Source of the DNA: a phage
Sequence record: NC_094493.1
DNA length: 64,000 nucleotides
Reading direction: 5' to 3' (one strand)
Shown: positions 20,963 to 21,251 of the stretch, one piece after another
How the letters are laid out: each line of letters opens with the position of its first letter
Position numbering within the stretch: position 1 is the first letter of the stretch
Position numbers and translations under genes: made by a program
The notes under the pieces: generated by a model
Database searches by the model: none
What the model saw: the letters and a program-made list of their open reading frames with translations, nothing else
Told to the model about the DNA's origin: nothing

Positions 20963-21251
20963 GGTTGTTTTCGTGTATCATGATGAATATCCAATTTAAA
21001 GATGAATTTGATGGCTTTATCTCTGGATGCTTTGAAACAGGGTTCGGAGAAGGCTGAGTTCCCCTTAGAGGGCTTGATAGTGCACCACACTTAAAATGGT
21101 AGGGGCAGCCAGCACATGACGATGTGACCCCAGCCAACCTGTAACAAGGTCGAGCCGAAGCGCGGGTAATAGGCCTCTGGTAACCCACTTGTTGGGTCTT
21201 GCTGGTCCAGGACGCTGGACAAGTCGCAGGGAATACCACCCTGCGGCGAAC

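Follow-up and report, generated by a model that had tools for sequence, protein, structure and literature searches.

The stretch of DNA considered here (the window, 64,000 nucleotides (nt) of sequence record NC_094493.1) comes from an rV5-like E. coli myovirus (Vequintavirus). Its interval 20965-21250 lies between a gene for a protein of 80 amino acids (aa) and the promoter P74 of the 112-aa gene ORF74, upstream of a cluster of seven tRNA genes, with all nearby features on the plus strand (Table 1). Around this interval, 1.3 kb match 118 phage records at 95-100% identity, and the gene arrangement is the same in all 118 relatives. The interval is blank in the rV5 reference record, though promoters are annotated there (P74 under that very name), and in other phage records it carries small 'hypothetical protein' calls. 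It holds two things, a micro-open reading frame (micro-ORF) of 25 codons and, at about 21056-21250, a structured RNA. This RNA is very probably a functional member of a family defined by a three-way junction, and the reading that we favour, with some reserve and from sequence comparison, is that the block would be an RNA gene, whose product, structured and non-coding, is about 190 nt long and belongs to a phage RNA family absent from catalogues.

An earlier examination of the letters alone (the sequence-only reading) had described about 290 bp of GC-rich sequence with internal complementarity, stretching from the end of the 80-aa open reading frame (ORF) at 20962 to a consensus promoter at about 21252. 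Both end points were confirmed. The second is P74, which is kept in the sister clade (IMG/VR L004-L007 and metagenome L037-L040 and L045, about 66% identical over the region) and which is the boundary of the RNA, lying outside the RNA itself and setting its 3' limit with the start of the -35 box. The GC island is real too, but it is about 210 nt long and not 290: 21041-21270 peaks at 60% GC, where the window averages 43.6% (standard deviation 4.6%), 21041-21250 has 57.1%, and the first 75 nt of the interval (20965-21040) have 31.6%. A comparison with another GC-rich block, at 19500-19745, which the sequence-only reading had suggested, showed no common sequence or motif.

The core of the family is a junction of 45 nt, whose fold was worked out from the variation among more distant members. 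In the family consensus, a P1 helix encloses a 4-bp P2 with a GUAAYA hexaloop, a joining strand J2/3 of CRA, a P3 of 2-3 bp and a joining strand J3/1 of GGUAA-N-G, the last two positions being a paired nucleotide and a bulged G. Both joining strands are nearly invariant. Across 36 distinct cores, 89.1% of cells are paired, compared with 26-40% in controls that shift the 3' partners by 1-3 columns, and the covariation score is 0.253 as against at most 0.052. Double changes occur at 7 of the 11 core pairs. Pair 4:43, for example, is CG in 25 cores, GC in 10 and AU in one, with none unpaired, and pair 6:40 is AU in 30, UG in three and CG, GC and UA in one each; P1 positions range over CG, GC, AU, UA and GU with few or no unpaired cells. 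The G-U pairs among them (12 at one P1 position) are compatible with the plus strand only. Pairing is thus conserved in homologues, by covariation as well as by compensatory changes, where the sequence-only reading had taken its absence as the finding that would count against a structured RNA. A covariance model built from the core alignment (R1) recovers window positions 21131-21176 with 55.5 bits (E about 1e-15), the sole strong match in the 64 kb, a score to be read in the light of an identical core sequence (L001) in the seed alignment. The copy of phage T4 scores 68.1 bits and is likewise close to seed members, and six other Vequintavirinae genera gave no match with R1.

The core is found far beyond the rV5-like phages. 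A pattern derived from the second conserved stretch (CAACCTGTARYAAGGTCRAG) matched 11 unrelated IMG/VR contigs where 1-2 are expected by chance, and the similarity among those contigs reaches a second box (GGTAATGG). A relaxed two-box pattern returned 87 stretches, of which 15 are true members and about 67 chance; in the box left out of the pattern, true IMG/VR members have 10-11 matches of 11 and chance ones at most 7 of 11. A BLAST search with the T4-type element matched 1,117 phage records, and in 557 of these the match spans 80% or more of the element. Carriers of the core include T4, where the element begins right after the stop codon of denV and lies between denV and vs.8, as well as T2, VR7, Jiaodavirus, Gelderlandvirus, Karamvirus and many other Straboviridae genera, a 289-kb jumbo phage and the 45-kb phage Ivi. 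Annotation at the core locus is almost absent among the BLAST-matched records, and the 137-nt denV-vs.8 spacer of T4 is blank in the records inspected. Neither the block nor the core has a match in E. coli. A BLAST comparison of the block with the tRNA regions at the syntenic site of six other Vequintavirinae genera revealed no similarity, and a plasmid origin was rejected, the sole 'plasmid' match of the block being a 137-kb, phage-sized record. Among the matches to the window are also 18 'Campylobacter phage' records (e.g., MG065658.1), some of them marked UNVERIFIED, that are 99-100% identical over the region and are probably mislabelled or contaminant assemblies.

Several copies have features of their own. 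Enterobacter phage ZX13 (L132) carries two tandem core copies at 393-560, about 75 nt apart, and Jiaodavirus AM_K5 and Klebsiella phage K65_evo9 have two core places each. In Straboviridae copies (L057, L128-L130, L134), a second conserved hairpin, GCCA-YGGAA-UGGC followed by CCC, is present about 60-90 nt past the core and just upstream of the vs.8 start, and is absent from the rV5-type and jumbo-phage copies. In a 47-kb IMG/VR phage (L064), the RNA is flanked by two almost identical direct repeats of 23 nt (GAGTGCTATTTCCGTTGTGACGA and GAGTGTCATTTCCGTTGTGGTGA), about 80 nt upstream and about 110 nt downstream of the core, which may be promoters specific to that phage.

Around the core, the rV5-type RNA has clade-specific modules. 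The 5' domain is 95.6% identical between the window clade and the sister clade, as against 68-69% for the flanking genes and 90.5% for the tRNAs. Its two hairpins are RNAalifold predictions that, because they never vary, offer no test of pairing, and the extra matches of an 18-mer from this domain in viral and genome collections stop at the seed, as expected of chance. Hairpin Pa keeps nine of nine pairs in five sequence variants, and six of the nine differ on both sides between the clades: in the sister clade the stems read GGAA/UUCC and CUACG/CGUAG, with the GACG loop unchanged. A pseudoknot between the internal loop of Pa and a strand just 3' of P1 is tentatively proposed, since the pairing partners at corresponding positions change together from clade to clade (GCCAG:CUGGU in the window, as against GUGAGGG:CCCUUAC, UGAGG:CCUCA and GAGGG:CCCUU), with the proviso that 4-bp matches are expected by chance. 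Hairpin Pb is dispensable, being absent by deletion in phiWec189, and its closing pair changes from A-U to U-A in L003. Hairpin Pc, which presents a second GACG loop, has six pairs in each of its variants, GCUCAG/CUGAGC (L003), GUCUAG/CUAGGC (FV3), GUCCAG/CUGGGC and UGCUGG/CCAGCA (sister clade); the register of its arms was read by hand, and RNAalifold also finds it. Hairpin Pd is a clade-specific 3' extension that every Vequintavirus copy has and the sister clade lacks; it is followed by GAACUUGACA and was not scored as an intrinsic terminator. The use of RNAalifold on the MAFFT alignment was hampered by the misalignment of fully compensated hairpins.

Transcription of the RNA is best seen in the sister clade, where a promoter (TTGACA-17-TATACT, 11 of 12 consensus positions, with the TG of an extended -10 element) ends 5-6 nt before the conserved 5' domain. 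Its position places the transcription start at the equivalent of window 21056-21058, at the stop codon of the micro-ORF. Together with the compensatory changes in the helices, the G-U pairs that suit one strand and a conservation higher than that of the flanking genes, this directly upstream promoter supports the small RNA that the sequence-only reading had suggested as one possibility. Two other copies have signals of their own: in L051 a promoter of the form TTGAGC...TATAAT, some 45 nt ahead of the RNA, and in L087 an 11-bp intrinsic terminator 28 nt after it. In the window, a candidate sigma-70 promoter at 20953-20981 is kept within Vequintavirus (with TATTAT in L003) and not kept in the sister clade; judged by its sequence, it might give rise to a transcript that begins some 70 nt ahead of the RNA. 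Host sigma-70 RNA polymerase would transcribe the RNA early, in the window phage either by read-through from P75 via the 80-aa gene and the micro-ORF or from the weaker promoter at 20953. No terminator-like site occurs on the plus strand in 20500-21800, so the 3' end would come from processing, or the transcript would run on towards the tRNA cluster.

Table 1. Features of the RNA block and of its surroundings in the window (+, plus strand; -, minus strand)
Feature	Position	Strand	Remarks
Putative structured non-coding RNA gene, about 190 nt	about 21056-21250	+	57% GC
rV5-type 5' domain (UUCCCCUUAGAGGGCUUGAUAGUGCACCACACUUAAAAUGGUA)	21059-21101	+	two invariant hairpins, 21062-64/21070-72 and 21079-82/21088-91
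Hairpin Pa	21102-21131	+	outer stem GGGG/CCCC, 7-nt internal loop CAGCCAG, inner stem CACAU/AUGUG, GACG loop 21118-21121
Three-way junction, 45 nt	21131-21176	+	family-defining
P1	21133-36 with 21170, 21172-74		21171 bulged; joins 5' and 3' flanks
P2	ACCU 21137-40 / AGGU 21147-50		hexaloop GUAACA 21141-46
J2/3	21151-53		CGA
P3	G21154:C21163, C21155:G21162
J3/1	21164-69		GGGUAA
Possible pseudoknot strand CUGGU	21177-21181	+	pairs with GCCAG 21108-21112 in Pa internal loop
Hairpin Pb	21183-21197	+	ACCCA-CUUGU-UGGGU; dispensable
Hairpin Pc	21205-21220	+	GUCCAG-GACG-CUGGAC; second GACG loop 21211-21214
Hairpin Pd	21223-21247	+	GUCGCAGGG-AAUACCA-CCCUGCGGC; 9 bp, no U tract; clade-specific 3' extension
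Micro-ORF, 25 codons	20980-21057	+	MMNIQFKDEFDGFISGCFETGFGEG, then stop; fills AT-rich first quarter of interval; outside RNA
Candidate sigma-70 promoter TTTACA-17-TATCAT	20953-20981	+	10/12; consensus match only
113-aa open frame	20943-21284	-	rejected as gene
Promoter P75	20640	+	upstream of 80-aa gene
80-aa gene	20720-20962	+	phrog_5676
Promoter P74, TTGACA-17-TAAAAT	21252-21280	+	promoter of 112-aa gene; 11/12 consensus match
112-aa gene (ORF74)	21309-21647	+	phrog_3330
Third promoter	21657	+
Seven-tRNA cluster	21744-22556	+
T4-type RNA ligase 1 family protein	16800-17735	-
AAA_33 kinase	17779-18246
Metallophosphatase	18254-18808
Replication-initiator-like ORF	18856-19206		phrog_12838, HTH_36
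Four 20-nt direct repeats ACTGTCCGTGATACGGACAC	about 19262-19365		3' of initiator-like ORF
AT-rich stretch	19370-19495		between direct repeats and GC-rich block
GC-rich block	19500-19745		minimum free energy (MFE) z = -2.82; confined to 118 Vequintavirus records
Terminase N-terminal domain, Terminase_6N	23660-24409
HNH_3 endonuclease with helix-turn-helix domains	24523-25218		after Terminase_6N part
Further ORF	25401-26186		after HNH_3 endonuclease

The micro-ORF, which the sequence-only reading had overlooked and whose stop codon abuts the 5' end of the RNA, is annotated as a coding sequence in phage Mangalyan and has a weak PHROG match (phrog_6828, E=2e-4). Among Vequintavirus copies, changes are synonymous only at seven codons and non-synonymous at three, mostly in the last codon, and it looks, at the level of codon changes, like a small protein under purifying selection. 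The sister clade has an 8-codon version (MKDEFDGF, then stop) preceded by a Shine-Dalgarno sequence, and a promoter replaces the remainder of the micro-ORF there. The two clades (L004-L007 aligned) have an identical stretch just before the RNA, AAAGATGAATTTGATGGCTTT (21003-21023, peptide KDEFDGF), which may have been conserved as a peptide, as a site in the DNA or as an element of an RNA leader.

Within the RNA block itself there is no conserved ORF on either strand. The overlapping 113-aa open frame of the minus strand, which the sequence-only reading had taken for an artefact, is indeed one and was rejected as a gene: it has no Pfam or PHROG match, its start codon is not conserved, and the frame is broken in L003 and in the whole sister clade. 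The minus strand is open over 94-103 codons in most relatives, and the indels of 1, 2, 4 and 10 nt seen in close relatives of the window are therefore insufficient on their own; the frame comparison is decisive, because close relatives read the N-terminal 40% of this ORF in three frames.

A recurrent trait of the family is the company of tRNA genes. In five lineages, the element and tRNA genes lie on the same strand within 50-600 nt: about 50 nt after three tRNAs in a 360-kb jumbo phage (L047), about 240 nt before four tRNAs in the 47-kb L064, about 300 nt after a tRNA in L087, about 540 nt after a tRNA-like hit in L050 and about 570 nt before the cluster in the window phage. The element is always oriented like the genes and tRNAs on either side of it. 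Elsewhere in the Vequintavirinae, other genera have tRNA-Thr, Leu, Arg and Cys at this place in the genome; in six such phages (L022-L027: KB57, SSE121, Hena1, 24-2-1, 4MG and CR8), a homologue of phrog_3330 lies inside the tRNA cluster, and several gaps of 200-360 nt between their tRNAs are unannotated and lack this RNA. The window cluster contains a tRNA-like gene of 99 nt (22213-22311) to which ARAGORN assigns a four-base anticodon (atcc) and no amino acid; it scores only 35.5 bits with the Rfam tRNA model and is called tRNA-Lys in GenBank (phage Mangalyan). The genes downstream of the element differ by lineage, and encode the Vs.8 P-loop protein, an unrelated 101-aa protein, ORF74 or a 629-aa tail-fibre-like protein; in L051 no same-strand ORF lies within 900 nt downstream. 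A Pfam search with Vs.8 and the other downstream proteins gave nothing informative.

Further away in the window, 2-4 kb ahead of the RNA and the tRNA genes, is an RNA-repair-like cluster of ligase, kinase and phosphatase genes (16800-18808). It is followed at 18856-19745 by an origin-like layout, in which an initiator-like ORF, direct repeats, an AT-rich stretch and a GC-rich block succeed one another. On the other side of the tRNAs, the large terminase subunit is apparently split (23660-26186), with an HNH_3 endonuclease between its N-terminal domain and a further ORF.

Searches of catalogues returned nothing for the element. No Rfam 15 family matched the block in a scan of the window at the gathering score or of 19350-21400 at E ≤ 10, nor did any match the element in T4, in seven other lineages or at 17 other core-carrying loci, and known riboswitch aptamer classes in Rfam had no match in the window, in T4 or in the seven lineages; no description of the motif was found in literature searches. 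Several familiar identities were considered and rejected. A group I intron (RF00028) gave no hit at the gathering score in the window, the split terminase region included, or at E ≤ 10 in 19350-21400, and the same model does detect an intron elsewhere, at 12784-13079 of L087. An intron in a host gene is not compatible with the position of the block between complete ORFs, each with a PHROG family. A tRNA or tRNA pseudogene is contradicted by the lack of an ARAGORN gene in the block, of an Rfam tRNA at E ≤ 10 and of similarity to the syntenic tRNAs. An intrinsic terminator or attenuator was dismissed, as no GC hairpin with a U tract occurs on the plus strand in 20500-21800.

A stand-alone RNA is favoured over a riboswitch because downstream genes differ between lineages, and because L051 and the sister clade have upstream promoters and L087 a downstream terminator. 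Independence of the downstream gene is, in our estimate, almost an even question that tilts slightly towards doubt. Several points speak against a separate RNA gene and have to be set beside the evidence above. The junction fold was derived from the same sequences that were used to test it, and the covariation score, reached by none of 500 shuffles, has its significance overstated by that control, because many of the 36 cores are closely related. P2 has a single covarying pair and P3 comprises 2 bp only. The thermodynamic optimum of the window RNA lacks the junction and shares 33 of the 46 proposed pairs. The MFE z-scores of the block (-1.42 on the plus and -1.16 on the minus strand) are not significant, so that the internal complementarity put forward in the sequence-only reading does not stand out by energy alone; the structure emerges from comparison with relatives. 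The window phage has neither the consensus promoter of the sister clade nor a terminator, and its RNA could be a 3' untranslated region or an intercistronic structure; the discrete transcript is a prediction, read from the DNA letters. The case for a tRNA- or translation-related partner draws on the neighbourhood alone, and the T4 copy lies 5-6 kb from the T4 tRNA genes. Lastly, the element of Straboviridae lies nearly always directly upstream of vs.8 and the order in L087 is RNA, intrinsic terminator and gene, and both arrangements fit a cis-acting leader.

Such a leader, either a riboswitch aptamer sensing a small ligand or a put-like RNA that modifies RNA polymerase for read-through, is the strongest rival, with a real if minor share of the probability, and is the form in which the regulatory structure proposed in the sequence-only reading survives. 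Aptamers are typically compact junctions like this one, in which the joining strands are invariant and the peripheral stems vary; in Straboviridae the element occupies the 5' leader of vs.8 irrespective of the gene before it; the tandem cores of ZX13 recall those of some riboswitches; and in rV5-like phages ORF74 and the tRNA cluster follow the RNA and no terminator separates them from it. The terminator of L087, placed between RNA and gene, points the same way. However, the genes downstream of the element have no common function, and in the rV5-like phages and the sister clade the downstream gene has a near-consensus promoter of its own between it and the RNA. Moreover, no competing helix was found that would sequester a ribosome-binding site or serve as an anti-terminator, and no Rfam riboswitch class matched.

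A self-cleaving ribozyme or a processing signal, which would cut an early polycistronic transcript and so free or stabilise mRNAs and tRNA precursors, is considerably less probable. It would suit the intercistronic position of the T4 element directly after the denV stop, the rV5-like phages, in which there is no terminator and a 3' end would therefore need processing, the closeness to tRNA genes, which are themselves processed, and the near invariance of the junction nucleotides, as in small ribozymes. Nevertheless, no Rfam ribozyme (hammerhead, twister, pistol, hatchet, hepatitis delta virus-like or any other) matched at E ≤ 10, no cleavage site can be identified from the sequence, and the large clade-specific extra domains are unneeded for a simple signal.

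A DNA-level element (a protein-binding, recombination or packaging site) or a minus-strand coding sequence is very improbable. Identical 20-nt stretches in unrelated phages could mean horizontal spread of a DNA site, and an open frame of 94-113 codons persists on the minus strand in most Vequintavirus copies. But the covariation preserves pairing and not sequence, the G-U pairs would be A-C mismatches on the other strand, the minus-strand frames are mutually shifted in close relatives, broken in others and without family match, and the orientation of the element always follows that of the flanking genes and tRNAs. Least probable of all is a functionless remnant, whether a decayed tRNA gene or the intron fragment that the sequence-only reading had also entertained: tRNA genes do precede the homologue of the downstream gene in KB57, 4MG, SSE121, Hena1, CR8 and 24-2-1, and the window phage does carry homing endonucleases and a split terminase, but the block lies between complete genes and has no tRNA or intron signal (ARAGORN, and Rfam at E ≤ 10 with permissive filters), the tRNA regions of other genera give no BLAST or covariance-model hit, and a decaying remnant is not expected to be 95.6% conserved, to keep its helices by compensation or to share its core with T4.

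For a structured RNA that acts in its own right, the invariant nucleotides of the junction and loops would form a pocket or surface for a conserved partner. Such a partner is implied by the invariance of the junction nucleotides across T4-like, rV5-like, jumbo and 45-kb phages. It is possible, and proposed here tentatively, that the 45-nt junction is the heart of a new phage RNA class that has its own biochemical activity, such as ligand binding, catalysis or the capture of a host factor of tRNA metabolism, translation or defence. Such a class would have escaped annotation in T4, T2, rV5 and hundreds more of the well-studied phages, and the rV5-type RNA would be an elaboration of it, to which an invariant 5' domain, two GACG loops and a pseudoknot have been added. 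A tRNA- or translation-related partner is proposed because of the proximity of the element to tRNA genes in five independent lineages and to the ligase, kinase and phosphatase genes, and appears rather doubtful; the repeated placement by tRNA genes, and in the window phage near the ligase, kinase and phosphatase as well, suggests that the RNA may have to do with the supply or repair of tRNAs or with host defences that target translation, a field of current activity. Should the T4 spacer and the rV5 block code for the same conserved structured RNA, then a phage function of wide occurrence has gone unnoticed; T4 has one of the best-studied genomes in biology, and yet its denV-vs.8 spacer stands without annotation in the records inspected. 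A covariance model for the family would also remove the spurious 'hypothetical protein' calls on the block in many rV5-like genomes.

Among known systems, three-way-junction aptamers, such as those for purines and thiamine pyrophosphate, resemble the present RNA in their invariant joining strands and loops, variable helices and, in some lineages, a position in a 5' leader, to which the terminator of L087 may be added. In contrast to them, the element has no Rfam match, no coherent regulon and no identified expression platform, and in rV5-like phages a promoter intervenes. The put RNAs of phage HK022 are cis-acting, consist of two stem-loops, render RNA polymerase insensitive to terminators and are not known outside HK022-like phages. 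Their likeness to the present RNA would be that both are phage-encoded, indifferent to the identity of the downstream gene and located near the beginning of a transcription unit, with terminators or structured regions further on; they differ in having two stem-loops where a three-way junction is found here; the two were likened by description only. T4 itself produces small stable non-coding RNAs of unknown function, rnaC and rnaD (species 1 and 2 RNAs), which are co-transcribed with tRNA genes. The setting, a large virulent coliphage, is similar, but the RNAs are not homologous, as R1 run with its filters off reaches at most 8.2 bits in the tRNA/rnaC region of T4. The Y RNAs (YrlA) of bacteria and phages have tRNA-like modules and occur near RNA-repair genes (RtcB or RNA ligase). 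The block is likewise a structured RNA near RNA-repair genes, here the ligase, kinase and phosphatase 2-4 kb upstream, and differs in having no Rfam Y-RNA or tRNA-like hit and no Ro/Rsr gene seen nearby. GOLLD and ROOL, finally, are large structured RNAs of phages and prophages, of unknown function, that were found near tRNA genes (PMC5737381). The present family matches neither of their Rfam models, its members are shorter (about 140-190 nt with a core of 45 nt, against about 580-800 nt) and they occur in enterobacterial phages such as T4 and rV5; like GOLLD and ROOL, they are phage-borne, non-coding and structurally complex, and they stand beside tRNA genes in five lineages.

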